This document shows positions 15,652 to 64,000 of a stretch of DNA of 64,000 nucleotides, piece by piece. The stretch lies in the NCBI GenBank assembly GCA_041645165.1, contig JBAZQN010000008.1:2374-66373 (forward strand). Reading direction: 5' to 3'. The stretch comes from Patescibacteria group bacterium (GTDB lineage: Bacteria; Patescibacteriota; Patescibacteriia; 2-02-FULL-49-11). The translations under genes were made by a program, and so were the position numbers. The notes under the pieces were generated by a model that saw only the letters and a list, made by a program, of their open reading frames with translations, ran no database searches and had not been told where the DNA came from. The stretch's first letter is position 1. Every line of letters starts with the position of its first letter.

Positions 15652-16038
15652 ATGCTAGTAAAACTCCCATTTATGCCACTTTTCCCCTCATTACGAAAGG
15701 ATTTATACCACCGGCTTCCATGGGTTATATGGAATGTGGCGATTTCGTTTGTTTTAAATGCGGCAACCTGGGTCTATGTGTATTTTACCATTGAGCCATC
15801 GGTAGATCCGATCCCGCTGCATATCACCGTGTATTTCGGAATAGATTTTATAGGCCCTTTTTGGTATTTTTACCTGCTTGCGGCATCAGGCACCCTCATG
15901 ACCATATTCAATGGCGGTGTGGGAAGGATGCTTTATCGCGATGAGCCAAGGCTTGCTGCGGCATTACTTACGTTCACAACGGTAATGAATGCGTTTTTGT
16001 GCGCCATCACGGTTTACCTTTCAACATTTGTGTTATGA
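15652..16038 (+). CDS. Hypothetical integral membrane protein (4 predicted TM).
   Basis: Hydrophobic profile only. Confidence 0.3.
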   Translation: MLVKLPFMPLFPSLRKDLYHRLPWVIWNVAISFVLNAATWVYVYFTIEPSVDPIPLHITVYFGIDFIGPFWYFYLLAASGTLMTIFNGGVGRMLYRDEPRLAAALLTFTTVMNAFLCAITVYLSTFVL

Positions 16039-16724
16039 GCGATCATGAGCCGTATCATTATTTTAATGAAATTTCGATTGGCCACGACTCAAGCGTTATG
16101 ATAGGGCGCAAATATGAGGAAGGTTATGTTTTTACGAGACGGGGGCCGCACATTATGCGACAGGTGCGCTCGGTAAGAGTTTCCATAGGCTCCTTTCAAT
16201 TATCAAGCGAGAATCGTCGGATCTTGAAAAACTATGCTTTCCTTAATCTCCATTATGAAGCACTGCCTTATCCAGGCTATCATTGGACAATTGGAAAAAT
16301 TGCAGTTGATTTTTATAAAAAGAAAACGGGCTCACGCGCCATGAGCGCCCAGAAAATAAAGACCCTATTCACCTCGCCTCATGAAAGCATGAATGGCGTT
16401 TTTATATATCAATGGAAACAAGTAGAACGCCCTCTCGGCTACAGCCTTCTTTTTTCATCTGCGCGTATGCTTCATTATGCGTATCCTTTTTACGACGTGG
16501 CACATGCACGCGCATTAACGCTTCCTTCCTTGGGAATGGCAATGATGCTCAAGGCGATCCTTTGGGCGCAAGAAAAAAATATGGACTATGTATATCTGGG
16601 AAGTATCCACAATGAACGCTCACTCTATAAATTTCAGTTTAAAGGAGTGGAGTGGTTTAATGGTAAAAAATGGCAGCAGGGGAAACCTGAAAAATCCCAA
16701 ATCCAAATTTCAAAGTTCAAATAA
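16035..16724 (+). CDS. Arginyl/leucyl-tRNA--protein transferase-like protein (ATE1/Bpt family, ATE_C-like).
   Basis: C-terminal DYVYLGSIHNERSLYKFQFKGVEWF resembles the ATE_C motif (YLGYYI...YK..F.P.E.L). The start is probably the internal Met at 16035. The last ~11 codons are read from a repeat element. Confidence 0.4.
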   Translation: MSDHEPYHYFNEISIGHDSSVMIGRKYEEGYVFTRRGPHIMRQVRSVRVSIGSFQLSSENRRILKNYAFLNLHYEALPYPGYHWTIGKIAVDFYKKKTGSRAMSAQKIKTLFTSPHESMNGVFIYQWKQVERPLGYSLLFSSARMLHYAYPFYDVAHARALTLPSLGMAMMLKAILWAQEKNMDYVYLGSIHNERSLYKFQFKGVEWFNGKKWQQGKPEKSQIQISKFK

Positions 16725-32422: not shown

Positions 32423-32758
32423 ATGACATCAGAAATCGCTTTAAAATTTATTTTCTTTGGCTTAATCGTCCTAGCGGTTGCTCTCGAAGTGACCGGTGAT
32501 ATTTTTTTCAAAAAATGGTCTATTGACAGTAGAAACGTTTTACTTTATTTTGGCCTTTTGATTTATTTTATTGGAACCATTTTTTGGGCGATTTCGCTGA
32601 AATATGAATATTTATCAAAAGCAATCTCTGTATTTACTGTTTTGAATTTAGTTATTGTTGCTCTTGTGGGCGTTCTCTATTTCAAAGAAGATTTGTCTTT
32701 GATAAATAAAATTGGAATCGGGTTAGGAATTTTGAGTGTTGTTCTTATTGAAATTTAA
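32423..32758 (+). CDS. SMR-family (EmrE/MdtI/MdtJ-like) small multidrug/spermidine exporter; low GC.
   Basis: 111 aa with 4 TM helices and a conserved Glu in TM1 (LAVALEVTGDIFFKKW). Confidence 0.6.
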   Translation: MTSEIALKFIFFGLIVLAVALEVTGDIFFKKWSIDSRNVLLYFGLLIYFIGTIFWAISLKYEYLSKAISVFTVLNLVIVALVGVLYFKEDLSLINKIGIGLGILSVVLIEI

Positions 32759-32768
32759 TGTGACAAAC

Positions 32769-33623
32769 ATGAGCAGTCAAAAAATTAAAATAGGCCTTGT
32801 GCAGATGCGCTGCAGTGAAAATAGCGTTAAAAATCTGGCTCATGCGATCGAGGAGATTAAGAAAACAGCGGACAGTGGCGCACAAATAGTATGTTTGCCA
32901 GAATTTTTTTTATCGAAATATTTTTGCCAAGGGCCGAAAGATGATAAAAATTTCAAACTAGCGGAACCGATTCCCGGACCGACCACTGAAGTGCTGGGGA
33001 AGCTCGCGCTTCAATATAAAATAGTCATACTCTGCTCATTGTTTGAACAAGCTGACAGAGGCAAATATTTTAATTCCATTGCGGTTATTGATACGCAAGG
33101 CAAAATCGCTGGTGTTTACCATAAAATGCACATTCCTTCAATCCCGTCGGGGCTTTACTCGGAGGATTATTATTTTCATAAAGGCGATAAAGGAGTCATC
33201 GTAGTTGATACGCCTTACGGTAAAATCGCGCCGTTGATTTGTTACGACCAATGGTTTCCCGAACTTGCGCGCATTGCAGCGGTGAAGGGAGCTCAAATCA
33301 TTTTTTATCCGACTGCCATTGGATGGCCGCACGATAATCCAAAATGGAAAAGACAAGCCGAACATGAAGCCTGGCAGATAATCCAACGCAGCCATGCAAT
33401 TGCCAATAATGTGTTTGTAGCGGCGGTCAATAGAATTGGCGTAGAGGGGGATCTGAAATTTTGGGGAACGTCGTTTGTAAGCGACCCGTATGGAAGAGTG
33501 ATTACTATGGCCGCAACAGACAAAGAAGAAAATGTGGTAGTGGAATGTGACTTAACTTTAATAGACAAAATGAGAAAAGATTGGCCCTTTTTGAAGGAAA
33601 GGAGAATTATGTGTGAAATTTAA
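32769..33623 (+). CDS. aguB: Carbon-nitrogen hydrolase; N-carbamoylputrescine amidase (AguB)-like.
   Basis: IKIGLVQMRCSENSVKNL...GAQIVCLPEFFLSKYFCQ closely resembles AguB N-termini. CN-hydrolase Glu/Lys/Cys (ICYDQWFPE) triad context. Confidence 0.7.
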   Translation: MSSQKIKIGLVQMRCSENSVKNLAHAIEEIKKTADSGAQIVCLPEFFLSKYFCQGPKDDKNFKLAEPIPGPTTEVLGKLALQYKIVILCSLFEQADRGKYFNSIAVIDTQGKIAGVYHKMHIPSIPSGLYSEDYYFHKGDKGVIVVDTPYGKIAPLICYDQWFPELARIAAVKGAQIIFYPTAIGWPHDNPKWKRQAEHEAWQIIQRSHAIANNVFVAAVNRIGVEGDLKFWGTSFVSDPYGRVITMAATDKEENVVVECDLTLIDKMRKDWPFLKERRIMCEI

Positions 33624-39215: not shown

Positions 39216-39644
39216 ATGAAAAATAAGATTCCTCAATGGATTGTGGTATCGGCTTGCATTACTGATACACAAGGCCGTATTTTCATGCAACGCCGTTTTG
39301 ATCCTCAAATACCTCTTGCTCATGGCAAATGGGAGTTTCCGGGAGGAAAGATTGAATCTGGAGAAAACCCCACTAAGGCCCTTAAGAGAGAATGCAAAGA
39401 AGAAATTGGTTGTGATATTACGATAAAACGCCTTATTCCGTATGTGTGGACCAATATTTGGAAAGAACGACACGGTAAACAAATACAAGCATTTCTTCTC
39501 TGCTATCATTGCTCCATAAAAAAAGGCAAACCACACCCTACAAATCCAGAAGTTTCGGAAATCCGCTGGTGTTCCCAAAAAGAAATAAAGAAATTAAAAG
39601 TGCTTCCCGGTACTCATGAATTTATTCAGCATGCGCATTTATAA
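39216..39644 (+). CDS. NUDIX hydrolase (NudG/MutT-like).
   Basis: Nudix box GGKIESGENPTKALKRECKEEIG. Confidence 0.8.
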   Translation: MKNKIPQWIVVSACITDTQGRIFMQRRFDPQIPLAHGKWEFPGGKIESGENPTKALKRECKEEIGCDITIKRLIPYVWTNIWKERHGKQIQAFLLCYHCSIKKGKPHPTNPEVSEIRWCSQKEIKKLKVLPGTHEFIQHAHL

Positions 39645-40968
39645 AGTCATCATTTTCATAATCGTTTTTGCAACACCTTTCACACTTCATGCCGAGGATG
39701 TACAGCAGCCCTTGCAGGCTGTTTTTGTTTCAAGTTCATCATTGAGTGCACTGCAGCGAATTACAGTACCCATACCCGAAGGATTGGGAAATGAATGGGA
39801 TGTAACTGCAATTGATCGCACTCTATTTTTTACCGCTACCCATGGCAATATTTACGCCTGGAGTCTTGATGAAAAGACGTTTAGCACGTTTCCGACCTAT
39901 GGGAAAGGATTCGATAATCCAATAGCCTATACCGCTTGCCGAAAACAAAACAGCACCTTTATTGCGGTAGTGCCGAGTTATGGGAATGCCCATGTGCTTA
40001 CCTTCGCACCCTCGGGAAGACTGTTGAATCCCGGTTTCTTTTTTGCGTCAAAGCCAAAATCGTATCGCACTATAACATGCGTTGATATAAATAATGATCA
40101 GAATGATGAATTAGTGATAGGGGAGAGGATAGGCAGCGCACTCACCATCACTATTTTGAATTTTATTGATGGAAAGCCAATTCAAACATTTAATATCAAC
40201 GATTGGGGACCGTTTGATTTTGAACTTAATCGTATTGATTTAGGAGGCGACGGCATTGATGAAATTCTTATCGGAAGCGGGGGATTGCGAGATCCTGAAA
40301 TTCGGATTTATCGCAGTGACGGTTCATTGATAAATTCTCTCATGGCGTTTCCAAATGAATTTAAGGGCGGCATCTACGTGCAAAGCGGCGATTTGGATTA
40401 TGACGGGAAAGAAGAATTAATCGTTGGATCGGGCCCGGGAAGCGGGCAGCTCCGCGTACTGGATGGATTTGGCAATGAAAAGATGACGAATAAATTCTTC
40501 CCCTTAGGAGCAAATTTTCGGGGCGGTGTAATTCCATTAAAGGTGAATGATGAAATCATAGCTTTGCAGTCATCACGGCTCATAGAGGATAGTTCACTTT
40601 CTAAATCCATATCTATTAACACTACAGACCAAACATTATCTGTGCTTGCGTATGGCTACTTATTTGCCTCTTTTCCCATCTCTACAGGCACATGGGATTA
40701 TCCCACTCCTCTTGGGAATCACAAGGTAATCAATAAAATCCCACGCGCGTATTCGCGCCGTTGGGGGCTTTTCATGCCGTGGTGGATGGCAATCGTGCCA
40801 TCCGGCACCTATGGCATCCACGAGCTGCCAGAGTGGCCTAATGGAACAAAAGAGGGCGAAGACCACCTTGGGAGCCGCCGTTCCCACGGCTGTATACGGG
40901 TGGGGGTAGGAGTTGCAAAAGCGCTCTACGATTGGACTCCAATTGGCACTCCCATTATAGTTAAATAA
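39616..40968 (+). CDS. Secreted L,D-transpeptidase (YkuD domain) with N-terminal FG-GAP/VCBS-like repeats.
   Basis: Signal peptide. Repeats DGIDEILIGSGG / DYDGKEELIVGSGPG. C-terminal catalytic motif YGIHE...GSRRSHGCIRV. Confidence 0.75.
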   Translation: MNLFSMRIYKVIIFIIVFATPFTLHAEDVQQPLQAVFVSSSSLSALQRITVPIPEGLGNEWDVTAIDRTLFFTATHGNIYAWSLDEKTFSTFPTYGKGFDNPIAYTACRKQNSTFIAVVPSYGNAHVLTFAPSGRLLNPGFFFASKPKSYRTITCVDINNDQNDELVIGERIGSALTITILNFIDGKPIQTFNINDWGPFDFELNRIDLGGDGIDEILIGSGGLRDPEIRIYRSDGSLINSLMAFPNEFKGGIYVQSGDLDYDGKEELIVGSGPGSGQLRVLDGFGNEKMTNKFFPLGANFRGGVIPLKVNDEIIALQSSRLIEDSSLSKSISINTTDQTLSVLAYGYLFASFPISTGTWDYPTPLGNHKVINKIPRAYSRRWGLFMPWWMAIVPSGTYGIHELPEWPNGTKEGEDHLGSRRSHGCIRVGVGVAKALYDWTPIGTPIIVK

Positions 40969-49221: not shown

Positions 49222-51207
49222 ATGAATAACACTATGACTGATCAAATTTCCCAAAACAATGACATCTGCTACTTTGCGATGACTAATTTTCGCGGCCAAA
49301 ATCGCAAATTTGGCATACGCACTGATGACCGCCGCAAACACATGTACCTCATTGGTAAAACCGGCATGGGGAAATCAACGACCCTCGAGAATATGATCAT
49401 ACAGGATATACGCGAAGGAAGGGGAGTGGGAGTAGTGGATCCTCATGGCGATTTGGTTGAAAAAATATTGGACTATATCCCCCCGCACCGCATCAACGAT
49501 GTCATATATTTTAATCCCGCTGACATTGATTACCCTATTGCATTCAATATTCTTGAAAACGTAGATCCCCGCTATAAGCACCTTGTCGCGTCCGGACTTA
49601 TGGGAGTATTCACAAAAATTTGGGCAAATGTTTGGTCAGCACGAATGGAATATATCATGAATAATTGCATCCTCGCCCTGCTTGATTCTCCCGGCAATAC
49701 CCTTCTAGGGATCAACCGCATATTAGTTGATAAGGAATACCGGCATAAAATTGTAAGCCGCATTTTAGATCCTGTCGTGCGGTCGTTCTGGGTGAATGAA
49801 TACGCGAATTACAACGACCGATTCCGCACTGAAGCAATCGCGCCAATCCAAAATAAGGTTGGGCAATTTCTTTCGACCGCAATTGTGAGAAATATTGTCG
49901 GGCAGACGCAATCGACCATAGATATGCGGGAAATCATGGATACCAAAAAAATCCTCATCCTCAATCTTGCGAAAGGACGCATAGGCGAGGACAATTCGTC
50001 GCTTTTGGGCGCGATGATGATTACCAAGCTGCAGCTTGCAGTCATGAGCAGGGTAGATATTCCTGAAAAAGAAAGGAATGATTTCTTCCTTTATGTGGAT
50101 GAATTTCAAAATTTTGCGACGACCTCATTTTCAGACATCCTCTCTGAAGCAAGAAAATATCGCCTCTCGCTCATTATGGCGCACCAATACATAGAACAAC
50201 TTGAGGAAGAGGTGGCTGCGGCGGTATTTGGCAACGTCGGCACTATCGCCTGTTTCCGCGTGGGCGCCACCGATGCGGAAGAGCTGGTAAAGGAATTTAC
50301 CCCTTATTTCACTGAAGAAGATTTGGTAAATCTCACTAAATATGACATTTATCTGCGGCTTATGATCAACGGCGTGGCGTCAAGGCCATTTTCGGCCACG
50401 TCGCTCCCGCCGCTTCGCACCGATGAAATGACAGGGAATCGTGAAAAAGTAATCGCGGTGTCAAGAGAGCGGTATACGAAACCGCGAGAGGAAGTTGAAG
50501 AGAAAATTATCAGATGGACCGGTATAGAAGATATGTATTCCACCACTGCTGAATTGGATAATATCGCTGGTATTGCCGAGGATGAGCAGCGGTATCGCGA
50601 ACTTCCCGCAGCTCCTCTACCTACTGAAAAACCGACAAATGAACCTGCCGTTTCTCAAGGGCCAGAACCAAAAAATGCCACATGTGACAATTGCGGTCGC
50701 GGTACGCTTATCACATTTACCCCGGATGAAAAACGCAACGTATTTTGCAAAAGCTGTCTGAAAAAATTTCGTCAGGGCCTTATCGACATCACCACTTTAA
50801 AAAAACGCAATATCCCTGAAGTGTATGATGCTCCTCCTGCGCACACACAAGCCGCTCCCACAGACAATACTGCTCATAAGACACAAAGCGCCCCTGTTTC
50901 CGCAAGCCCTAATTTTGTCATACTGAAACCACCGCCCAAACTCTCTCCATCGCAGCATGATGAGCAAGTGCGAAAGATACCCATACTTCCCGTATCCTAT
51001 CCTAGTGAGTTATCGCTGCGAGACGCCCTTCAAACCGAGCCAATTCCTTTCCATAAATTACGCGGCAATAAATTAAAAAGGCGCCTTACGACAGAAACCA
51101 CGCCCTTTGAAACACAAAAAGAACCCGCTGAATATGCTCCGCCCATGCCTAAACCGCGCCATTATGTCATCAAAGGGATTCCTCCCAAAAAAGTGGTTCC
51201 ATTATAA
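49222..51207 (+). CDS. VirD4/TraD/TraG-like (type IV coupling protein-like; FtsK/HerA superfamily) P-loop ATPase with a C-terminal zinc ribbon and a Pro-rich tail.
   Basis: Walker A LIGKTGMGKST, a downstream VVDPHGDL box, Walker B FLYVDEFQNF and SLIMAHQYIEQL (T4CP-like sensor). C-terminal CDNCGRG...CKSC. Confidence 0.55.
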   Translation: MNNTMTDQISQNNDICYFAMTNFRGQNRKFGIRTDDRRKHMYLIGKTGMGKSTTLENMIIQDIREGRGVGVVDPHGDLVEKILDYIPPHRINDVIYFNPADIDYPIAFNILENVDPRYKHLVASGLMGVFTKIWANVWSARMEYIMNNCILALLDSPGNTLLGINRILVDKEYRHKIVSRILDPVVRSFWVNEYANYNDRFRTEAIAPIQNKVGQFLSTAIVRNIVGQTQSTIDMREIMDTKKILILNLAKGRIGEDNSSLLGAMMITKLQLAVMSRVDIPEKERNDFFLYVDEFQNFATTSFSDILSEARKYRLSLIMAHQYIEQLEEEVAAAVFGNVGTIACFRVGATDAEELVKEFTPYFTEEDLVNLTKYDIYLRLMINGVASRPFSATSLPPLRTDEMTGNREKVIAVSRERYTKPREEVEEKIIRWTGIEDMYSTTAELDNIAGIAEDEQRYRELPAAPLPTEKPTNEPAVSQGPEPKNATCDNCGRGTLITFTPDEKRNVFCKSCLKKFRQGLIDITTLKKRNIPEVYDAPPAHTQAAPTDNTAHKTQSAPVSASPNFVILKPPPKLSPSQHDEQVRKIPILPVSYPSELSLRDALQTEPIPFHKLRGNKLKRRLTTETTPFETQKEPAEYAPPMPKPRHYVIKGIPPKKVVPL

Positions 51208-57014: not shown

Positions 57015-57276
57015 AGTGATAATAACATTTTACGGACGCGTACAAGGGGTTGGTCTTCGCGTGTTTATCGCACAATGCGCTGGCGAACATAATGTCACAG
57101 GCACTGTGCAGAATAAGCCTGACGGGACAGTGCAAGCGGAACTCTGGGGCGATAAAGATCAATTAGCAAAATATATTGAAATATCTGCGCGCGGTTCACG
57201 CTTCTCCCGCATTGAAAATATCACGACCGTCTGGGGTGTAGCTGATCACGCACCTAATAATTTTAGAATCCTATGA
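57007..57276 (+). CDS. acyP: Acylphosphatase.
   Basis: VIITFYGRVQGVGLRVF...GTVQNKPDGTVQAELWG signature. Confidence 0.8.
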   Translation: MNKVIITFYGRVQGVGLRVFIAQCAGEHNVTGTVQNKPDGTVQAELWGDKDQLAKYIEISARGSRFSRIENITTVWGVADHAPNNFRIL

Positions 57277-58766
57277 GATACGGCACGAACAGGGTAGTAG
57301 AAATTTTACCTGGCGCACTTACCTGGACCACCCTTATCGCAGTGGTCACTTTATCTTTTGTCAAACCTGTTTGGGTAATCGTATTTGTCATTTTATTTGA
57401 TTTATATTGGCTGATACGCGTCTTGTATTTCGTCACATGGCTTTTTGTATCATGGATGCGGTATAGGCAAGAGGTAAAAATATCTTGGTTAGACAAACTG
57501 AAGACAATTCCTTTATGGCACGATCTGTGGCATATCGTATTCCTCCCCACTTATAAAGACACAGAAGAGGTGCTCGAAACCACATTCCGCGCCCTTGATG
57601 AAAGCAATTACCCTCATGACCGCATTATTATCGTATTGGCGGGCGAAGAGCGTGACCAAGAGCGATTTGAACACATTTCCCAATCAATCATACATCGTTA
57701 TGAAAACCGGTTTGCCCAAATCATCACCACGCTCCATCCTTCAGATCTTCCTGATGAGATTCCCGGGAAGGGATCGAACCTCTACTGGGCGGGAAAGCGC
57801 ACACAAGAATTTATTGATGCAAAACAAATTCCATATGACCGTATTGTAGTATCAGCTTTTGATATAGACACTGTCGTACATCCGCAATATTTTGCCAGAT
57901 TGAGTTATGCATTTCTCACGCACCCCACTCCATTAAGAACAAGCTATCAGCCTCTCGCGCTTTTTAATAATAACATCTGGGACACTCCATCCTTCAGCCG
58001 GGTAGTCGCAAATTCAACTACCTTTTGGCTTATGACGGAACTCGCGCGCCCTGAGCGCCTGCTCACCTTTTCCTCGCATGCGATGCCGTGGCAAGCCCTT
58101 GTAGACGTGGGATTTTGGCAAAAAGACATTGTCAATGAAGATGCGCGCATTTCCATGCAATGTCTCGTGCACTACCATGGCGACTACCGCGTGACGCCAC
58201 TTTATATACCGGTATCTATGGATACCTGTTACGGTGGAAGCGTATTAAAAACTATTACCAACCAATATAAACAAATGAGGCGCTGGGCATGGTCTGTGGA
58301 ACATCTGCCCTATTTGGTTTCCAGTTTTAAAAACGATTCTCTCACGCCGTTAAGAATAAAATTTAAATATATCTGGATCATTGGGGAGGGGACCTACTCG
58401 TGGGCCACCGCGGCAATGCTCATTACCCTAAGTCGACTCCCTTTATGGGTAGCAGCCCACGTATCATCCACTTCGCTCCTTGTGCAAAATGCGCCCTTTG
58501 TACTTGAATGGCTTATGCGTCTGGCGATGCTTGGCATTGCGGTCAGCGCATTCGTGAGTGTAAGTATGCTTCCTCCTGCGCCTCGCCATAAAACATACAA
58601 AATTCTTACTATGGTGGCGCAGTGGTTTCTTTTGCCAATTACCCTTCTCGTATTTGGTTCCATCCCCGCCATAGATGCGCAAACCCGCCTTATGTTCGGC
58701 AAATACCTAGGTTTCTGGTCAACAGAAAAAGTGAGAACAAAAAATCGTGTACCACACGTGTCATAG
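57273..58766 (+). CDS. Membrane GT2 family glycosyltransferase (processive, cellulose/chitin-synthase-like).
   Basis: DID / DED motifs and QYKQMRRWAWS (QxxRW) flanked by TM helices. Confidence 0.65.
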   Translation: MRYGTNRVVEILPGALTWTTLIAVVTLSFVKPVWVIVFVILFDLYWLIRVLYFVTWLFVSWMRYRQEVKISWLDKLKTIPLWHDLWHIVFLPTYKDTEEVLETTFRALDESNYPHDRIIIVLAGEERDQERFEHISQSIIHRYENRFAQIITTLHPSDLPDEIPGKGSNLYWAGKRTQEFIDAKQIPYDRIVVSAFDIDTVVHPQYFARLSYAFLTHPTPLRTSYQPLALFNNNIWDTPSFSRVVANSTTFWLMTELARPERLLTFSSHAMPWQALVDVGFWQKDIVNEDARISMQCLVHYHGDYRVTPLYIPVSMDTCYGGSVLKTITNQYKQMRRWAWSVEHLPYLVSSFKNDSLTPLRIKFKYIWIIGEGTYSWATAAMLITLSRLPLWVAAHVSSTSLLVQNAPFVLEWLMRLAMLGIAVSAFVSVSMLPPAPRHKTYKILTMVAQWFLLPITLLVFGSIPAIDAQTRLMFGKYLGFWSTEKVRTKNRVPHVS

Positions 58767-58919
58767 TGAGCCGAGTCGAGTGGTGAGCTTGTCGAACCAT
58801 CCGTTTGCGCTTTTCTTCACGGGTGGTAGGATAAAGGTATCATTGCGGAGGGATTATTTCTACCCTCATGCGCTCTTCAATCCTTAAACGCATCGCTTCC
58901 ATTCTCATTGACATAACCG

Positions 58920-59117
58920 ATGTGTGGGTGTTGCTCGCCTATGTCCCTCAAGCATGTTGCCCGCCATGCCCGTGTGAGCGGTCTTAAAGGCGTCGTCGCG
59001 GAGACGGAAGCCGAGAACATCCCTGCGCAGAGACTCTACAAGAGATGCAGTTTTCAGCGGATCAAAAATCCGAGGTTTGAAGGGCATACTTACCGGCTTA
59101 AGTTTCAACGGGGCTAA
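58920..59117 (+). pseudogene. Remnant of a GNAT N-acetyltransferase (C-terminal fragment only).
   Basis: ...VVAETEAENIPAQRLYKRCSFQRI is a GNAT motif C/D fragment. No N-terminal acetyl-CoA binding region. Confidence 0.45.
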
Positions 59118-59180
59118 AATCCTCAGTAATTTCCTTCGTAGACGAAATGAGACGTCACCATTGGTGAAAGGAGATAAGGT

Positions 59181-60167
59181 ATGAATATTGATCATGTATC
59201 ATCGGCGGTCGCCGAGCATTTTGGTGGTTTGTGGGAAATCACGGCTCAGCAACGAACGCTTAATGGCGTGATATTTTTCCTCCGCAGCGGCAGTCGTGAG
59301 ATGGTGGCGAAAGCGCCCGCTCTTCGTTTGTTCGCGCAGACGCCGATAGCCGATCGTATTCAAACAGCATATCGCATAAATCAAGATGCGGCTCGTTACC
59401 GCGAGCTCCTAAAAAAATATAATGTTCCTTTAGCCCATGAATTTAAGGCGATAATCTTGCCGGGAGGGGAAGCGTTGCATGTCGTTTCACACGAAGGACC
59501 CAACTGTTTGGCAATTCTTGAGAGTCAGCCTACCCTCGAGATTGTACGTACTGTCATCCGAGGCATCCTGGAAGCCGTTATGGGAGTGCTGCATCAACCT
59601 GATCCTCCTGAAGTGGGGATCGACTTGAAGCTCGATAATTTTACCAAGAACGGAGGGATATTTTATGTCGATCAATTCCCGCCGTTGTATTATGACGCCG
59701 CGCGTGGCGCGTACATTGTGCATGAACCGCAGCCGGAAGATCCCAATGAAGTAGCAAGACAGGTTCAACGCAAATTCACCGTAAACGGTAATTTGCGCAG
59801 ATTCCGGTCTTTTATTCTTAAGGTTTCCCGCGTTTTTGAAAATGTATGGCTTGAAGAGGTCGAGCGAGTGCTGGATCCGTCGCTCTGGCGGGAAGTGCGG
59901 GCATTCTTCGAAAATCTCCCCGGTCAACAATTACGCCCGCCAGTGCGGCGGGCTGATTTCTTGATGGCGATGGAGTCGTTGAAGCCTGACGATTATGACG
60001 GGATGCGCGATGTTGCGCTTCGGGTCGTTCCAGGTGGTTCACAACGAAAGGAGTTGCTGGACCAGGTCTTTCTTGCCGCTCGTTTCCGCGGACCTGACGG
60101 AAACCAGTTAGATGACCCAAAGTCATCTGTCATCAGGCTTCTCGTTCCTTTTTGCCGCAGCAGGTAG
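59181..60167 (+). CDS. Hypothetical protein-kinase-like-fold (APH/choline-kinase-like) enzyme.
   Basis: Catalytic-loop-like GIDLKLDNF and a downstream DQF. No Gly-rich P-loop seen. Confidence 0.3.
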   Translation: MNIDHVSSAVAEHFGGLWEITAQQRTLNGVIFFLRSGSREMVAKAPALRLFAQTPIADRIQTAYRINQDAARYRELLKKYNVPLAHEFKAIILPGGEALHVVSHEGPNCLAILESQPTLEIVRTVIRGILEAVMGVLHQPDPPEVGIDLKLDNFTKNGGIFYVDQFPPLYYDAARGAYIVHEPQPEDPNEVARQVQRKFTVNGNLRRFRSFILKVSRVFENVWLEEVERVLDPSLWREVRAFFENLPGQQLRPPVRRADFLMAMESLKPDDYDGMRDVALRVVPGGSQRKELLDQVFLAARFRGPDGNQLDDPKSSVIRLLVPFCRSR

Positions 60168-60170
60168 GTA

Positions 60171-60857
60171 TCAATTGTGAATATGTTTGATACCAAATTC
60201 TGGCACCACTATCGTATCGTCGAATTGCAGAATGAATTGAACCGCTTTTGCTACCTCCTCCGGATCGATGGCGTTGCGCATATTTTTTTCAATACCCGCT
60301 TTCTGGAAGAGGCGCGTGTTCAGCTTGCCGGGATAGACTCCGGTTACGCGAATATTGTGTTCTGCAAGTTCTGCCTGGATTGACTTCGTGAAACCAGTGA
60401 TCGCCCATTTGGAAGCAAAGTACACGGACATATTGGGTTTCGCGTACAAACCGGCTTGAGAAATAATGTTTACTATGGTTCCGCTCCTTCGTTTTTTCAT
60501 AAAGGGGATAACCGCTTTGGTCAAATATATCGTGCCCAAAGTATTTACTTCTATCGTTTTTTTGATATCCCGAAGGCTGTGGTCTTCCAAATTGCCTTGC
60601 GCCCAAACACCTGCGCAATTGATCAGGTAGTCTATGCGTTTATATTTTTTTAGAATGTTGCGTACGGCGCGTTGTACGCTGGGATACGCAGTGACATCGC
60701 CTATTTCATAGGCACATCCCAATTCTTGCGCAGTTGTGCGGAGTTTTTCTTTATGGGGTGACATGATGACTACCATGGAGGCGTCCCCCGTCAATTTGCG
60801 CGCGATTGCTTTACCCAGACCATCACTCCCGCCGGATATCACGATGACGTTTTTCAT
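60171..60857 (-). CDS. Short-chain dehydrogenase/reductase (SDR).
   Basis: VIVISGGSDGLGKAIA (TGxxxGxG-like) and the YASK catalytic motif (SVYFASKWA). Confidence 0.8.
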   Translation of the reverse strand: MKNVIVISGGSDGLGKAIARKLTGDASMVVIMSPHKEKLRTTAQELGCAYEIGDVTAYPSVQRAVRNILKKYKRIDYLINCAGVWAQGNLEDHSLRDIKKTIEVNTLGTIYLTKAVIPFMKKRRSGTIVNIISQAGLYAKPNMSVYFASKWAITGFTKSIQAELAEHNIRVTGVYPGKLNTRLFQKAGIEKNMRNAIDPEEVAKAVQFILQFDDTIVVPEFGIKHIHN

Positions 60858-61067
60858 AATGTCGCATTATTGTGAGTATTCACACGCTAAACCAAGTGTA
60901 AGCGATTCGGTGTATAAAAGCAATTTTCTTTTACCCATCACGTTCCCGCATAGCGTTATACATCGGCTAGTGTTGCGGGGAGCATTTTGGGGAATGCGTT
61001 GACAGAGTGAAATCGTATGGTAAGATGACAAACTATTTTTGTCGCCCCAACTTTACTTCGCGACCAT

Positions 61068-62612
61068 ATGGACATCGATCAGAGTAACTCCTCGACACGT
61101 GAGCCGGTCATAGTTTTTGATATCGGAGGGACATGGTTTCGAAGCGGGATCCTTCTTTCTAATAGTCGATTGATCGATGTTACAAAAACTCCGGCAGTCA
61201 ATTACAGAACTCATCCGAATCAGAAAGTATCCGAGCTACAAACTTCGCTCATGGTGTATCTCACGAAGGAAGCTCGTCGTTTAAGATCCGATTTTTCGGG
61301 AACGCGTTTGCGGACGGTGGGAGTTTCTATGGGTGCGGCGTTGAACGCCCACACAGGTCTCATTTTGAATTCTGGCCCACTCTGGGGGCCGGAATGTAAA
61401 CCATTTGATCTTAAGAGGAATCTCGCGAAGAGAGACCCTTCATTTAATTGGCTTATTCTGAACGATATTTCCGCTGCACTTATAAGGCATGTCGCGGATA
61501 TAAATTGTGAGCAGTATAAGAAAGTATCTCTCGTCACAGTGAGTACGGGGATCGGCGCACGCGCTATTGACGTGCGTACGCATGTTATGCCGCTTGATCC
61601 GCGTCACGGCATACAAGGAGAAATCGGTCACATTCCGATCGAATTTACCTTTCGTGGCGCACGCATTGAACGCGTATGCGACTGCGGCGGGCGCAACCAT
61701 CTTAACGCATTTTGTTCAGGGAGGGGGATTGAATCGCTGTTGGAGACTCTGCCCAGGAAATACCCGAATGCATCCAGGAGAATCACTCCCTCTCGCTTCT
61801 TGAAGGGAAAAACGCCGTTATCATTTTCCTCTTTCGCCCATGCAGTGAAACGGGAGGATGAATGGGCGAGGGAATTGCTCGATGCAGTAACGCTTCCGCT
61901 CGCAAGGTTACTCGTCACGGCTTTTACCTTTGATCCTGAGATGAGCGTTGTATTTGTGACCGGAGGTGTGGTTGATACTTTGGGCGAACATTATCGACGA
62001 AGCCTCCTTAAGAACCTCAATGCCATAGGACTCTATCAAATCACCGGACGCGAGCCTTCGTTTTTTGGAAAACGAGTACGCACCGGAATACACGATGACC
62101 GTTCCGGGTTGATTGGCGCCGGTCTCTATGCGCGCATGCACGACATTGCTGCACATCCTGATGCGCGTGACCATAAACAATGGACTGTTTCCGCTCAATC
62201 ACCCGTTCGTTACGACGTGAGAGAGGTGGACGGTCTTTTCGTCTCAGATCAATCGCCGTTATTTGCCTATCGGGGACCGAAAGCGAATCACTCAACCCGC
62301 AGATTTGTGGTAGTCGATCGCAGGGTACATCAATACTACGGCGCAGATATGAAACGGTTTTTCTCCCGACATGGCTTCCAGGCTCACCTCATGATTATGT
62401 CCATATCCGAACGACAAAAAACGATGGCGACCGTTTTGAAAATTGTGGCATCGTTCAGTACATTCGGACTTTCCCGCCGTAGCGAACCAGTGATCGCAGT
62501 TGGTGGGGGTGTTCTCCTCGATATCGTCGGTCTTGCCGCGAGTCTCTATAAGAGAGGCGTGCCCTATATTCGCGTTCCTACTACGCTCTCTCATTGGTGG
62601 ACGCGGGCGTAG
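61068..62612 (+). CDS. ROK-family sugar kinase domain fused to the N-terminal part of a DHQS-like sugar-phosphate cyclase. The 5' part of a frameshifted fusion gene.
   Basis: ROK features: VIVFDIGGTWFRSGIL and Zn motif CDCGGRNHLNAFCSG. The C-terminus ...VIAVGGGVLLDIVGLAASLYKRGVPYIRVPTTL is the DHQS NAD-binding block. The frame breaks at ~62590. Confidence 0.6.
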   Translation: MDIDQSNSSTREPVIVFDIGGTWFRSGILLSNSRLIDVTKTPAVNYRTHPNQKVSELQTSLMVYLTKEARRLRSDFSGTRLRTVGVSMGAALNAHTGLILNSGPLWGPECKPFDLKRNLAKRDPSFNWLILNDISAALIRHVADINCEQYKKVSLVTVSTGIGARAIDVRTHVMPLDPRHGIQGEIGHIPIEFTFRGARIERVCDCGGRNHLNAFCSGRGIESLLETLPRKYPNASRRITPSRFLKGKTPLSFSSFAHAVKREDEWARELLDAVTLPLARLLVTAFTFDPEMSVVFVTGGVVDTLGEHYRRSLLKNLNAIGLYQITGREPSFFGKRVRTGIHDDRSGLIGAGLYARMHDIAAHPDARDHKQWTVSAQSPVRYDVREVDGLFVSDQSPLFAYRGPKANHSTRRFVVVDRRVHQYYGADMKRFFSRHGFQAHLMIMSISERQKTMATVLKIVASFSTFGLSRRSEPVIAVGGGVLLDIVGLAASLYKRGVPYIRVPTTLSHWWTRA

Positions 62613-63304
62613 GGGTTAAAATAGGGGTGAATTTTAATGGTCACAAGAGTTGTCTTGGCGATTATTACGTACCTCTTGCCGTTTTTCTTGATGTCGGATT
62701 TTTGAAAACATTGCCCAGGCGTCATATACGTAATGGTGCGGCGGAAATCATTAAGATGGGGGTGATAAAGGATAAGGAGCTTTTTGAATTGCTCGAATCG
62801 CATGGAGAGGAACTTCAGCACAATAGATTTCAGAACAGCGCAATCGCTCGCCACGTCATACGACGTGCCATACAGGGAATACTTGAGGAATTGGAGCCGA
62901 ATCTCCAGGAAGAACGATTGGAACGCCTCGTTGATTTTGGGCATACCTTCAGTCCTCAAATTGAAATGCAAGCATTGCCTGCGCTTCTTCACGGTGAAGC
63001 GGTGGCGATCGATATGGCATTATCCACATGTATCGCGTATGAGCGAAATTTACTTTCTGAGAGCGAGAGAGACCGCATCATACGGCTGATACGTTTGTTC
63101 GGTCTGCCGGTGTTCCACCGCGTATGTACGTCTGCACTGCTCTCGCGCGCGTTACAGAAATCAACGCAGCACCGCGACGGACTGCAACGTTGTCCTCTTC
63201 CGATCCGTATAGGTATGACAACGTTTGTTAATGACATCACGGACGAGGAATTAAAAAATGCATTGAGAATATTAAAAAAGTATGCAAGATCAAGCGATAC
63301 GTGA
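62594..63304 (+). CDS. C-terminal part of the DHQS-like sugar-phosphate cyclase (continuation of the previous CDS in the +1 frame).
   Basis: VDAGVGVKIGVN (cf. VDSSVGGKTGIN), ...GAAEIIKMGVI... and HGEAVAIDMAL (metal-binding His block). Confidence 0.6.
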   Translation: MVDAGVGVKIGVNFNGHKSCLGDYYVPLAVFLDVGFLKTLPRRHIRNGAAEIIKMGVIKDKELFELLESHGEELQHNRFQNSAIARHVIRRAIQGILEELEPNLQEERLERLVDFGHTFSPQIEMQALPALLHGEAVAIDMALSTCIAYERNLLSESERDRIIRLIRLFGLPVFHRVCTSALLSRALQKSTQHRDGLQRCPLPIRIGMTTFVNDITDEELKNALRILKKYARSSDT

Positions 63305-64000
63305 GGCACCCGCGTGGCATGAGGGGCTTATCATCGCCGCAAGCGGAGAAGTGGTATGTGCACGAGTCCCTACGGCAAAGCCGCAAGAGGGAGAGCTATT
63401 AGTTTCAATTCTGCGCGCGGGAGTGTGTGGAACTGACGTGCAGATTCTCAAGGGCGAGCGGCACGATCGTACCAAAATCTTGGGGCATGAGGGATTGGGT
63501 GTGGTGATAGGTGCAGGATCCAAAGCAGATGAATCGTGGATGGGGAAATATGTGGTGTTCAATCCCGTTGATCCATGCGATCAAGAGCGGATTCTTGGGC
63601 ACAGCTACGACGGAATTTTTCAACAGTACTTTCTTGTTTCTCGTGACGCGCGGCGACGGGGGCTGCTCGTTCCCTATGATGTAGAATTACCGTATATATA
63701 CGGTCCCTTGGTCGAGCCGCTTGCTACCGTAGTGTATGCACATTCCCTCGTGGAGAGGAAAGTCAAGCCGAAAGCGGTCGCGGTGGTAGGAGCAGGTCCT
63801 ATAGGTATCATCCATGCGCTCGTTAGTAAGATATGCGACGATGCTTGTATATTCCTTATTAATAGGTCACCCGCACGCCTCCATTGGGCCATCGAGCATA
63901 GGATCATAACTCATGGAGAGGCAATTCAAGACATCGGTCATCTCGCTGAAGAAATGTTGCGTCGCACAGGCGGAATGGGGGTAGATGCGGTGTATTTGTG
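63282..64000 (+). CDS. Zn-dependent medium-chain dehydrogenase/reductase (ADH/sorbitol/threonine-dehydrogenase-like), 3'-truncated by the window edge.
   Basis: The frame from ATG 63282 (not in the ORF track because no stop falls within the window) carries GHEGLGVV (Zn-binding GHE), a Cys-rich structural-Zn region and the Rossmann motif VVGAGPIGII. Confidence 0.6.
   Translation, partial: MQDQAIREAPAWHEGLIIAASGEVVCARVPTAKPQEGELLVSILRAGVCGTDVQILKGERHDRTKILGHEGLGVVIGAGSKADESWMGKYVVFNPVDPCDQERILGHSYDGIFQQYFLVSRDARRRGLLVPYDVELPYIYGPLVEPLATVVYAHSLVERKVKPKAVAVVGAGPIGIIHALVSKICDDACIFLINRSPARLHWAIEHRIITHGEAIQDIGHLAEEMLRRTGGMGVDAVYL

Follow-up and report, generated by a model that had tools for sequence, protein, structure and literature searches.

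Analysis of a 64,000-nucleotide stretch of a MAG contig from an ultra-small Patescibacteria bacterium (the window) revealed that positions 58,964 to 64,000 form the left half of an island of approximately 12 kb (~11.8 kb) that was acquired horizontally. The island probably encoded a C7-cyclitol (carbasugar) pathway, brought in by horizontal transfer and containing a kinase-cyclase fusion, which has only recently died. Every gene that the first-pass annotation had listed for this block was found where it had been placed, and the claim that the fusion was split by a single frameshift was confirmed by alignment with a close relative (L095). The features were as follows:

58,920–59,117, plus strand: 3′ remnant of a GNAT acetyltransferase gene, ~52 codons (Pfam Acetyltransf_1, E 8e-4)
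59,181–60,167, plus strand: protein-kinase-like protein of 328 aa, DUF6206-like, with kinase-type motifs
60,171–60,857, minus strand: SDR of 228 aa, oriented divergently to the fusion gene (adh_short, E 1e-51)
61,068–62,612, then in the -1 frame to 63,304, plus strand: ROK and DHQS-like fusion, 745 aa when repaired
61,068–62,162, plus strand: ROK-family kinase domain, aa 1–365 of the fusion (Pfam ROK, E 2.7e-19)
62,181–62,586, plus strand: cyclase domain, 5′ portion, read in frame 0 and following on from the ROK domain without a break
62,586–62,588, plus strand: frameshift, one T missing from GCTTCTC in the alignment with L095
62,587–63,304, plus strand: cyclase domain, 3′ portion, read in the -1 frame (DHQS_C, E 6.6e-28; ORF 62,594–63,304)
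63,282–64,000, ending at the window-equivalent position 64,424, plus strand: Zn-dependent dehydrogenase MDR-A, 380 aa (ADH_N, E 5e-13)
Beyond 64 kb: NUDIX hydrolase, MDR-B, DmpG-like aldolase::APH fusion, ThDP acetolactate-synthase-like enzyme and HAD phosphatase

The part of the island beyond 64 kb was taken from the independent Logan assembly of SRR8449827, which was 100% identical to the window DNA across 9,831 nt. Between 58,964 and 70,761 (the approximate right end, in extended-contig coordinates) the gene order was GNAT remnant, kinase-like, SDR, fusion, MDR, NUDIX, MDR, aldolase::APH, ThDP enzyme and HAD. The 91.7% identity between the island and L095 was confined to this interval; the flanks differed on both sides, and the left flank of L095 encoded resolvase and transposase genes. 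The previously noted rise in GC from ~58.8 kb was real and modest, at 0.493 (58,780–64,000) and 0.496 (island) compared to 0.440 upstream, where 5.2-kb windows used as the reference had a mean of 0.439, a standard deviation of 0.013 and a maximum of 0.468.

Judged by its sequence, the cyclase is EEVS-type (ValA/AcbC family), a class that is not separated here from EVS (2-epi-valiolone synthase). Pfam DHQ_synthase matched aa 443–555 of the repaired fusion (E 3.9e-32), giving with DHQS_C a two-domain DHQS-like fold. The domain matched ValA (4p53) with 375 bits (E 4e-111, ~55% identity across the aligned domain), compared to 259 bits for DDGS (5tpr), at most 141 bits for AroB structures and 100 bits for DOIS (2d2x), and identity as DOIS was rejected on these scores. 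An alignment of ValA, DDGS and the cyclase showed that the EEVS fingerprint Asp (LVDFGH) and His (TQHRDG) aligned with the D and H of ValA, whereas DDGS has A and T, respectively, at these positions. Among 39 aligned fusions the Asp (D623) was invariant and the His (H702) was conserved in at least 90%. We take these residues to be Asp281 and His360 of ValA, with Ala and Thr in DDGS, a numbering that reportedly goes back to Kean et al. 2014. That EEVS and DDGS can be told apart by such a fingerprint is described in PMC4426668. A neighbour-joining tree of the cyclase did not resolve the groups. The ValA-like scores and the fingerprint bear out the proposal of a non-shikimate DHQS-like sugar-phosphate cyclase and a cyclitol pathway, but the suggested hexokinase supplying hexose-6-phosphate did not hold, as an EEVS-type cyclase would be expected to use sedoheptulose 7-phosphate and not a hexose phosphate. 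AroB and DOIS share the DHQS fold and NAD/metal-dependent cyclisation chemistry with the island cyclase; their substrates, DAHP and glucose-6-phosphate, are unlike that of the island cyclase and their match scores were much lower.

The ROK domain retained the ATP-binding DxGGT, the catalytic Asp and the Cys/His zinc motif. The motifs D18-G20-G21-T22, N132-D133, G184-E185-x-G187-H188 and C204-x-C206-G207...H211 were invariant or nearly so in the alignment of 39 fusions. Its best matches were ROKs encoded next to EEVS genes, in Streptomyces clavuligerus (252 bits) and Agrobacterium vitis (192 bits). The ROKs of the ValABC-like loci L058 and L075 scored 84–95 bits (26–30% identity) and sugar kinases from PDB and NCBIfam only 33–43 bits; none of the NCBIfam sugar-kinase models came near its cutoff, the best scoring 43 bits against 253.

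Intact ROK::cyclase fusions of 650–810 aa (at least 78, with 35–51% identity) were found in Saccharibacteria, Terriglobales, Dehalococcoidales, Streptomyces, Kitasatospora and Terrabacter genomes. An MDR-A homologue lay directly downstream in all 14 of the 14 fused genome loci, and also downstream of ROK/EEVS genes in L091–L094 and on both plasmids described below, while L093 had the gene order of the island (SDR, fusion, MDR, NUDIX, MDR). The first-pass annotation had allowed that the fusion might prove to be two independent genes lacking pathway neighbours; neighbours were in fact conserved in many genomes. A megaplasmid of S. clavuligerus encodes an unfused ROK-cyclase-MDR-MDR cassette in the same order as the island, with 41% (ROK), 47% (cyclase), 39% (MDR-A) and 32% (MDR-B) identity. 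Like the island, this cluster also has HAD, GNAT and NUDIX genes, to which it adds a DegT aminotransferase, pgl, rpe and a GHMP kinase. The plasmid cassette of A. vitis differs from the island in that its genes are separate and ordered cyclase-ROK-MDR-SDR-epimerase. The records of the two cassettes carried no functional annotation, and a literature search found no paper on them. Additionally, ROK::MDR fusions were found beside stand-alone EEVS genes, and homologous clusters hold the pentose-phosphate-pathway genes pgl, rpe, transaldolase and glpX, which would supply sedoheptulose 7-phosphate.

These data bear on two other readings of the fusion. It is barely conceivable that it belongs to primary metabolism, as a shikimate AroB joined to a glucokinase, the dehydrogenases around it having nothing to do with it. 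An NCBIfam aroB model did match the cyclase with an E of 4e-65, and JGI labels the homologues '3-dehydroquinate synthetase/sugar kinase'; however, the aroB scores were below the family cutoffs (TIGR01357, 220 bits against 305; NF004852, 220 against 333) with ValA far ahead, and the cyclase motif is DAGVGVK and not the DSSVGGK of AroB. No aroA, aroK or other shikimate genes were present in the upstream flank within the window or in the 6.8 kb past the window's end, where the first-pass annotation had asked whether an AroB-like cyclase might be followed by aroK/aroA, and the neighbours that are conserved encode dehydrogenases, NUDIX and HAD proteins. AroB identity was rejected on these grounds. 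It is unlikely, if less far-fetched, that the ROK domain acts as a sugar kinase feeding the fused cyclase, either with hexose-6-phosphate or with sedoheptulose 7-phosphate produced from the free sugar. Sugar kinases are typical of the ROK family, and the kinase is N-terminal of the cyclase in every fusion, which is compatible with a kinase-then-cyclase order. Patescibacteria have a limited central metabolism, which a salvage kinase could suit. The ValA/EEVS-like type of the cyclase, far from DOIS, rules out hexose-6-phosphate. Against the sedoheptulose version stand the characterised EEVS-associated ROKs AcbM and ValC, ROK-family kinases that act on cyclitols (PMC9200736), the sedoheptulose 7-phosphate supply genes of the homologous clusters, the ROK::MDR fusions, which link the kinase with an enzyme acting after the cyclase, and the low sugar-kinase model scores. 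The earlier view of the ROK domain as a substrate supplier was not borne out, for the first three of these reasons. The parallel between the module and AcbC/AcbM/AcbL/AcbN makes the cyclitol product the most likely substrate of the ROK kinase. This correspondence is based on family, gene order and the ValA/ValB/ValC-like locus L058, whose ROK shares only 30% identity.

MDR-A carries the zinc motifs GVCGTD and GHEGLG; its gene begins within the end of the cyclase gene, in a 23-nt overlap that includes the cyclase stop, and runs off the window. The 328-aa protein had no Pfam or NCBIfam match at E 0.01 or better (weak DUF6206, E 0.077), but VAK44, D148-L-K-L-D-N153 and D164 were invariant in four sequences; these correspond to the strand-3 Lys, the DxKxxN catalytic loop and the metal-binding Asp of a protein-kinase-like fold. 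A Foldseek search with its AF2 model (pLDDT 68.6, below 50 at residues 156–170) gave kinases for all of the top matches (CTR1, fructosamine-3-kinase and APH(3′)-Ia; E ~1e-3, TM ~0.3). It had been proposed as an APH-like self-resistance kinase, for which there was neither an APH Pfam match nor a profile likeness to the island's own APH domain (hhalign probability 0.2%). Its only distant homologues (40% identity) are encoded directly after NTP_transferase genes, which suggests sugar/cyclitol activation rather than resistance and makes it a candidate sugar/cyclitol kinase. Only the close relative conserves it, and both it and the SDR are tied to the pathway mainly by adjacency; an SDR adjoins the fusion in L093, L007 and L092, and an SDR is also present in the A. 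vitis cassette. None of the island genes between 58,964 and 70,761 encoded an aminotransferase, nucleotidyltransferase, glycosyltransferase or pseudoglycosyltransferase; the aminotransferase or glycosyltransferase genes that the first-pass annotation had suggested looking for past 64 kb were absent from the island extension.

Alignment of the fusion with L095 placed the loss of a single T at 62,587. At this site L095 reads ACG CTT CTC TCA TTG GTG (TLLSLVD) and the window ACGC-TCTCTCATTGG. The deletion splits the cyclase domain between PTT and LLSLVDAG so that no intact ORF remains, and the frame-0 ORF continues past it only as far as a TAG at 62,610–62,612. When repaired, PTTLLSLVDAGVGVK aligned without gaps to PTTLIGMIDAGIGAK of ValA. 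Two other genes of the island are also damaged. The ThDP gene has a CAA to TAA nonsense codon where L095 has CAA and an intact 548-aa ORF; this stop falls 7 codons ahead of an ATG, in a variable linker between domains, so that two working subunits might still be made from the gene. The Acetyltransf_1 match of the GNAT remnant covers the last 36 residues only (profile positions 81–116), whereas the GNAT that L095 encodes here is intact, with 156 aa (Pfam E 1.9e-16). With the loss of T from the fusion, the ThDP nonsense codon and the GNAT gene truncated at the island edge, the pathway in this genome is recently dead; that the decay is recent is indicated by dN/dS values against the relative of 0.15–0.30 across all ten genes (0.15–0.24 in both halves of the fusion). 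The repaired fusion departed from 2 of 113 highly conserved columns, compared to a median of 3 for the homologues.

The fusion gene is best read as a pseudogene rather than a sequencing artefact, because the same lesion occurs in an independent assembly and the ThDP stop and truncated GNAT accompany it. Of the alternatives left by the first-pass annotation, inactive or mis-sequenced, the former is therefore favoured and the latter is not. A sequencing or assembly error, which would leave the fusion and the pathway intact and functional, is improbable. Such an error would equally be expected to go with low dN/dS in both halves and with the 111 of 113 highly conserved residues that are kept, the frame is intact at the site in L095, and the assemblies carrying the deletion may all stem from one read set. 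However, the deletion was base-for-base identical in the Logan assembly of SRR8449827 and the truncated 514-aa product was recorded in JGI, ENA, Logan and GEM sources. The site is merely a TT dinucleotide and not a long homopolymer, and 92% of the window is otherwise coding sequence, the median ORF having 349 aa, which shows that the assembly is not indel-ridden. Moreover, the sister lineage, L095 (91% identical), broke the same gene by insertion of a transposable element 185 nt upstream of the site. A programmed frameshift, by -1 ribosomal frameshifting or transcriptional slippage, that gives a regulated full-length fusion is scarcely credible. Slippage by -1 at CTC would give precisely PTTLLSLVDAG, but the site lacks a slippery heptamer of the form X XXY YYZ, L095 and all 38 aligned homologues use a single frame across the region, and the break falls inside the nucleotide-binding domain and not in a domain linker.

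Inactivated cyclases of this type are known from Burkholderia leaf symbionts, in whose reduced genomes EEVS genes are flanked by IS elements and inactivated by nonsense or frameshift mutations, and in which the kirkamide (K) and streptol (S) clusters show signs of horizontal transfer (bioRxiv 10.1101/2022.09.27.509721). Compared by description, the island resembles the K and S clusters in having a mutationally broken cyclase and in being mobile; unlike the island, those clusters have aminotransferases and unfused genes. The early acarbose/validamycin pathway comprises AcbC/ValA, AcbM/ValC, the Zn-dependent 'cyclitol dehydrogenase' AcbL, which works as a dehydratase, the SDR AcbN and the kinase/HAD phosphatase pair AcbU/AcbJ (PMC9200736, PMC7081202). 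The island shares with it an EEVS-type cyclase, ROK, Zn-MDR and SDR, together with another candidate kinase and a HAD phosphatase. It differs in that its kinase and cyclase form one polypeptide, its ROK is distant from those of the ValABC-like loci, its host is a Patescibacterium and not an actinomycete, and it adds NUDIX, a second MDR, a ThDP enzyme and the DmpG-like aldolase::APH fusion. It also differs in the four transferase classes missing from 58,964–70,761; with no transferase to install a nitrogen bridge or a sugar, it departs from C7N-aminocyclitol clusters of the acarbose/validamycin/kirkamide type.

The sequence data show directly which domains are present, the lesions, the limits of the island and how far the module is conserved; from the comparisons we infer an order of steps, a kinase substrate and a product for the pathway. 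The C-terminal EEVS-type cyclase of the fusion would cyclise sedoheptulose 7-phosphate, giving 2-epi-5-epi-valiolone or an epimer close to it, and the N-terminal ROK domain would phosphorylate the resulting cyclitol, in the role of AcbM/ValC. In acarbose biosynthesis AcbL removes water from 5-epi-valiolone-7-P, while valienone-7-P is reduced by the SDR AcbN (PMC9200736, PMC7081202); MDR-A, MDR-B and the SDR may take these roles in dehydration and ketoreduction, on the way to a cyclitol phosphate resembling valienol/streptol. Phosphate position and nucleotide activation could be the task of the kinase-like protein together with the HAD phosphatase and NUDIX hydrolase, and the ThDP enzyme and aldolase::APH fusion could add further tailoring. 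On the genomes compared, the ROK kinase, cyclase and MDR dehydrogenase at the core of this putative pathway are a widespread module.

Translation and listing of the ORFs in 58780-64000 bore out every item that the first-pass annotation had named for this block, as well as the GC rise that it placed at about 58.8 kb (0.493 in 58780-64000 versus 0.440 upstream, where the highest 5.2-kb window reached 0.468). An independent Logan assembly of run SRR8449827 was used to extend the sequence past the window, to window-equivalent 70,789. The genes encoded were:

58920-59117: 65-codon ORF, a GNAT remnant that matches the GNAT profile over its last third only
59181-60167: 328-aa ORF (accession MFA4873078.1)
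60171-60857, minus strand: SDR (Pfam adh_short, 1e-51)
61068-62612, plus strand: 514-aa 5′ ORF of the ROK-kinase::cyclase fusion, which resumes in the -1 frame as 62594-63304
63282 to beyond the window end, plus strand: Zn-dependent alcohol dehydrogenase (Zn-MDR), 380 aa in full (Pfam ADH_N, 5e-13)
Past 64 kb: NUDIX protein, NDP-sugar-pyrophosphatase-like, 208 aa
Past 64 kb, minus strand: second MDR-like dehydrogenase, 347 aa
Past 64 kb: DmpG-like aldolase::APH-family kinase fusion, 700 aa
Past 64 kb: acetolactate-synthase-like ThDP enzyme, broken by an in-frame TAA
Past 64 kb: HAD phosphatase

The start of the Zn-MDR gene overlaps the cyclase stop by 23 nt. Pfam analysis of the 745-aa fusion, repaired by one base, revealed ROK (E 2.7e-19), DHQ_synthase (3.9e-32) and DHQS_C (6.6e-28) domains. 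Exact look-up identified the MnmA of the window contig as MFA4873074.1 and found no NCBI protein accession for the 514-aa truncated fusion product. The aminotransferase or glycosyltransferase genes for which a search past 64 kb had been proposed were absent up to window-equivalent 70,789, as were shikimate genes.

A related lineage, with approximately 91% DNA identity, was found in over 20 metagenome assemblies, from groundwater and other sources. It matched only across 58964-70761 (91.7% identity), and the flanks on both sides were unlike; its left flank encoded a serine recombinase, a DDE transposase and defence-like genes. The confined similarity, the differing flanks and the GC offset together indicate that the segment is a mobile island of approximately 11.8 kb.

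Directly left of the island, 57273-58766 encoded a hydrophobic 497-aa protein with no Pfam or NCBIfam match. A 661-aa ORF at 49222-51207, whose 90% cluster has the NCBI name 'type IV secretion system DNA-binding domain-containing protein', represents a mobility-related gene about 8 kb upstream of the island. Three same-strand ORF pairs that overlap by 23-40 nt in different frames (15652-16724, 32423-33623 and 39216-40968) could be ordinary overlapping genes or split genes. An Rfam scan of all 64 kb gave no match at the gathering threshold, and hence no tRNA, rRNA or riboswitch.

The single frameshift reported in the fusion proved to be real. Adding one base after ACG gave PTTLLSLVDAGVGVK, which aligned without gaps to PTTLIGMIDAGIGAK of the EEVS reference ValA (4p53). 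The relative reads ACG CTT CTC TCA TTG GTG at this site, in one frame, and its CTT shows that the window has lost one T. Over 9,831 nt the Logan assembly of SRR8449827 did not differ from the window, frameshift included. An exact DNA pattern spanning the site had no match in metagenome_contigs. Across the whole window, 92% of the sequence was coding and the median ORF length was 349 aa, so the frameshift cannot be put down to an assembly prone to errors throughout. Programmed frameshifting was ruled out by the lack of a slippery heptamer at the site and by the in-frame relative. A natural split into two cyclase subunits was also ruled out, since the break lies in the interior of the N-terminal nucleotide-binding domain, away from the domain linker.

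Comparison of the cyclase domain with solved structures gave 375 bits to ValA, 259 bits to the cyanobacterial DDGS, at most 141 to AroB and 100 to DOIS. Against the NCBIfam aroB model it scored 220, below the cutoff of 305. The window cyclase carries an Asp (in LVDFGH) and a His (in TQHRDG) that aligned with Asp and His in ValA; DDGS has Ala and Thr at these positions. The numbering of the Asp/His positions that separate EEVS from DDGS is reportedly that of Kean et al. 2014. Residue positions discriminating the two enzymes have been described (PMC4426668). The structure-match scores, the sub-cutoff aroB score and the Asp/His pair identify the domain, on sequence grounds, as an EEVS-kind sedoheptulose-7-phosphate cyclase, a class within which EEVS and EVS were not told apart. 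Subfamily placement by a neighbour-joining tree of 127 cyclase domains was discarded; the tree was comb-like, and DDGS fell among the fusions, evidently through a long-branch effect. The suggestion of a cyclitol pathway outside the shikimate route was right in kind, and the hexose phosphate named as the substrate of the cyclase was wrong: an EEVS-kind enzyme would use sedoheptulose 7-phosphate.

A protein search revealed at least 78 full-length ROK::cyclase proteins with 35-51% identity, variously named 'ROK family protein', 'iron-containing alcohol dehydrogenase' or '3-dehydroquinate synthetase/sugar kinase'. A genome scan, which worked only with an alignment as query (the single repaired protein found no relatives), located them in Candidatus Saccharibacteria, Terriglobales, Dehalococcoidales, Streptomyces, Kitasatospora and Terrabacter. 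A Zn-MDR homologue directly followed the fusion in all 14 fused genome loci, often with a homologue of the second MDR next. One metagenome contig shared the window gene order (SDR, fusion, MDR, NUDIX, MDR), and one Saccharibacteria locus added a ThDP enzyme, aldolase, APH kinase, NUDIX, nucleotidyltransferase and RmlD-like gene. In this Saccharibacteria genome (L029, 9986-12173 and 6267-8274) the ROK and cyclase genes were separate and overlapping, with TAA then GTG at the linker, and the aldolase and APH kinase were also separate genes; the island fusions are thus fission/fusion variants within Patescibacteria.

Unfused versions, with 30-47% identity to the window proteins, were encoded by the Streptomyces clavuligerus megaplasmid (pgl-ROK-cyclase-MDR-MDR-aminotransferase-rpe-HAD-GNAT-GHMP kinase-NUDIX) and an Agrobacterium vitis plasmid (cyclase-ROK-MDR-SDR-epimerase-MFS-MDR). 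ROK::Zn-MDR fusions of 733-762 aa (proteins P0111 and P0115; locus L094, 6781-10202) lay beside a stand-alone EEVS, giving another Rosetta-stone combination of these three enzymes; in one Streptomyces genome a stand-alone EEVS was followed by ROK::MDR, with transaldolase and glpX nearby. The megaplasmid Zn-MDR homologue (L099, 9119-10201; 39% identity) is a 'hypothetical protein' in RefSeq and barely touches the Pfam dehydrogenase models; current profiles cover this MDR subfamily poorly.

The acarbose and validamycin pathways offer a template for the order of reactions. AcbM and ValC are ROK-family kinases acting on C7-cyclitols, AcbL dehydrates 5-epi-valiolone-7-phosphate, the SDR AcbN converts valienone-7-phosphate to valienol-7-phosphate, and the kinase AcbU with the HAD phosphatase AcbJ shifts the phosphate from C7 onto C1 ahead of nucleotidylation (PMC9200736, PMC7081202). 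The island holds the same enzyme families. Most genomes have the ROK kinase fused to the cyclase and a few have it joined to the MDR, as would be expected of an enzyme acting between the two. We therefore favour an order in which the cyclase would act first and the ROK kinase second, after which the MDR and SDR steps would yield a valienol- or streptol-like cyclitol phosphate. The remaining island genes would serve phosphate position, nucleotide activation and tailoring; for the ThDP enzyme, one possibility is a ThDP-dependent C-C ligation onto a keto-cyclitol. Pentose-phosphate genes in related clusters account for substrate supply. The proposal that the ROK domain supplies the cyclase with its substrate is probably wrong, as the EEVS-linked AcbM and ValC phosphorylate cyclitols and the fusion pattern fits such a role.

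The 328-aa protein had been read as an APH-like kinase, typical of tailoring or self-resistance; we found no support for the APH self-resistance idea. It had no family match in Pfam or NCBIfam, and hhalign showed no similarity to the APH domain of the island, both alignments being very thin. A large protein search found homologues in three other clusters only. An invariant lysine (in VAK), a D-L-K-L-D-N loop and an Asp further downstream are present in the protein, and its AF2 model, of moderate quality (pLDDT 68.6), gave weak structural matches, all to kinases. The only distant homologues, with 40% identity (weak DUF6206), lay directly downstream of sugar-phosphate nucleotidyltransferase genes on four contigs (L087, 634-2698; L088; L089; L090, 540-2498), a placement more suggestive of a 1-kinase for a sugar or cyclitol than of resistance. 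L090 also carries a second DUF6206-like paralogue. Its adjacency to the other genes in two close lineages is the basis for placing the 328-aa protein in the pathway.

Further lesions were found in both lineages. In the extended contig (L002, 15161-15163; window-equivalent 69330-69332) the ThDP gene has TAA where the relative has CAA; the ORF is intact in the relative (548 aa), as is the Saccharibacteria homologue (553 aa). As this stop falls in the linker joining the N domain to the middle domain, seven codons before an in-frame ATG, the gene would be either dead or split into two subunits. The GNAT upstream of the 328-aa gene is complete in the relative (156 aa, Pfam E 1.9e-16); homology in the window starts only at 58964, leaving about 52 codons. 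The fusion of the relative is itself interrupted in the cyclase, at window-equivalent 62401/62402, by a transposable element. Its terminal inverted repeats (GGCTATCTTTGCAATAAAAGCGTACACC / GGCTAACTTTGCTATGAAACCGTACACC) are 28 bp long and match at 24 of 28 positions, and 6 bp of the target (CGTAGC) are duplicated. All left contigs of the relative end about 144 nt into the element and all right contigs begin about 139 nt before the far end; the interior is unassembled, and more than 20 assemblies break within it. The SDR of the relative carried a 1-nt A insertion, causing a frameshift, in two assemblies (L004, 9103-9790, and L005) and was intact in two others (L003 and L006), reflecting either strain polymorphism or homopolymer error.

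The dN/dS between the two lineages was 0.15-0.30 for all ten genes, and the repaired fusion departed from consensus at 2 of the 113 columns conserved at ≥90% (homologue median 3). Purifying selection therefore acted on the island over most of the period after the lineages diverged, and its lesions are recent. What the window carries is a recently inactivated representative of an EEVS-based cyclitol cluster variant that is widespread but unstudied.

Among characterised systems, the nearest are the early acarbose/validamycin pathway and the clusters for kirkamide and streptol in Burkholderia leaf symbionts; the latter share the EEVS, ROK and HAD core and likewise show EEVS pseudogenisation and flanking IS elements (bioRxiv 10.1101/2022.09.27.509721). 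The island differs from these systems in its fused kinase-cyclase, two dedicated MDRs, added ThDP/aldolase-kinase set, Patescibacteria host and lack of a nitrogen-installing or glycosylating enzyme. Our literature search found no description of a ROK-EEVS fusion, a Patescibacteria EEVS or the S. clavuligerus cluster, which is absence of evidence only. The ROK::EEVS-MDR-MDR core often occurred with NUDIX, SDR and HAD genes and, in Patescibacteria, also with a ThDP carboligase-like enzyme and an aldolase/APH kinase. Tentatively, and with considerable doubt, this core might represent a widespread, uncharacterised C7-cyclitol pathway, set apart by its lack of an aminotransferase, glycosyltransferase or methyltransferase-oxidase from the routes to acarbose, validamycin, kirkamide and gadusol.

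The C7-cyclitols, among them acarbose, validamycin, kirkamide and gadusol, include drugs, agrochemicals, sunscreens and symbiosis factors, and to our knowledge every known route to them begins with a stand-alone EEVS-type cyclase. The kinase-cyclase fusion with two dedicated dehydrogenases is common in at least five bacterial phyla, annotated merely as 'ROK family protein' or '3-dehydroquinate synthase', and the paired ROK::EEVS and ROK::MDR pattern supports the order cyclase, kinase, dehydrogenase. As the window copy is broken, its chief value is as a pointer to intact, expressible homologues. Genome-reduced Patescibacteria are thought to be nearly without secondary metabolism; here they carry C7-cyclitol clusters on a mobile island that purifying selection maintained until very recently. 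If the pathway is as tentatively proposed, these ultra-small episymbionts would make a carbasugar, possibly branched or nucleotide-activated, that serves against or with their hosts, and the window copy would be a freshly inactivated case of pathway loss.
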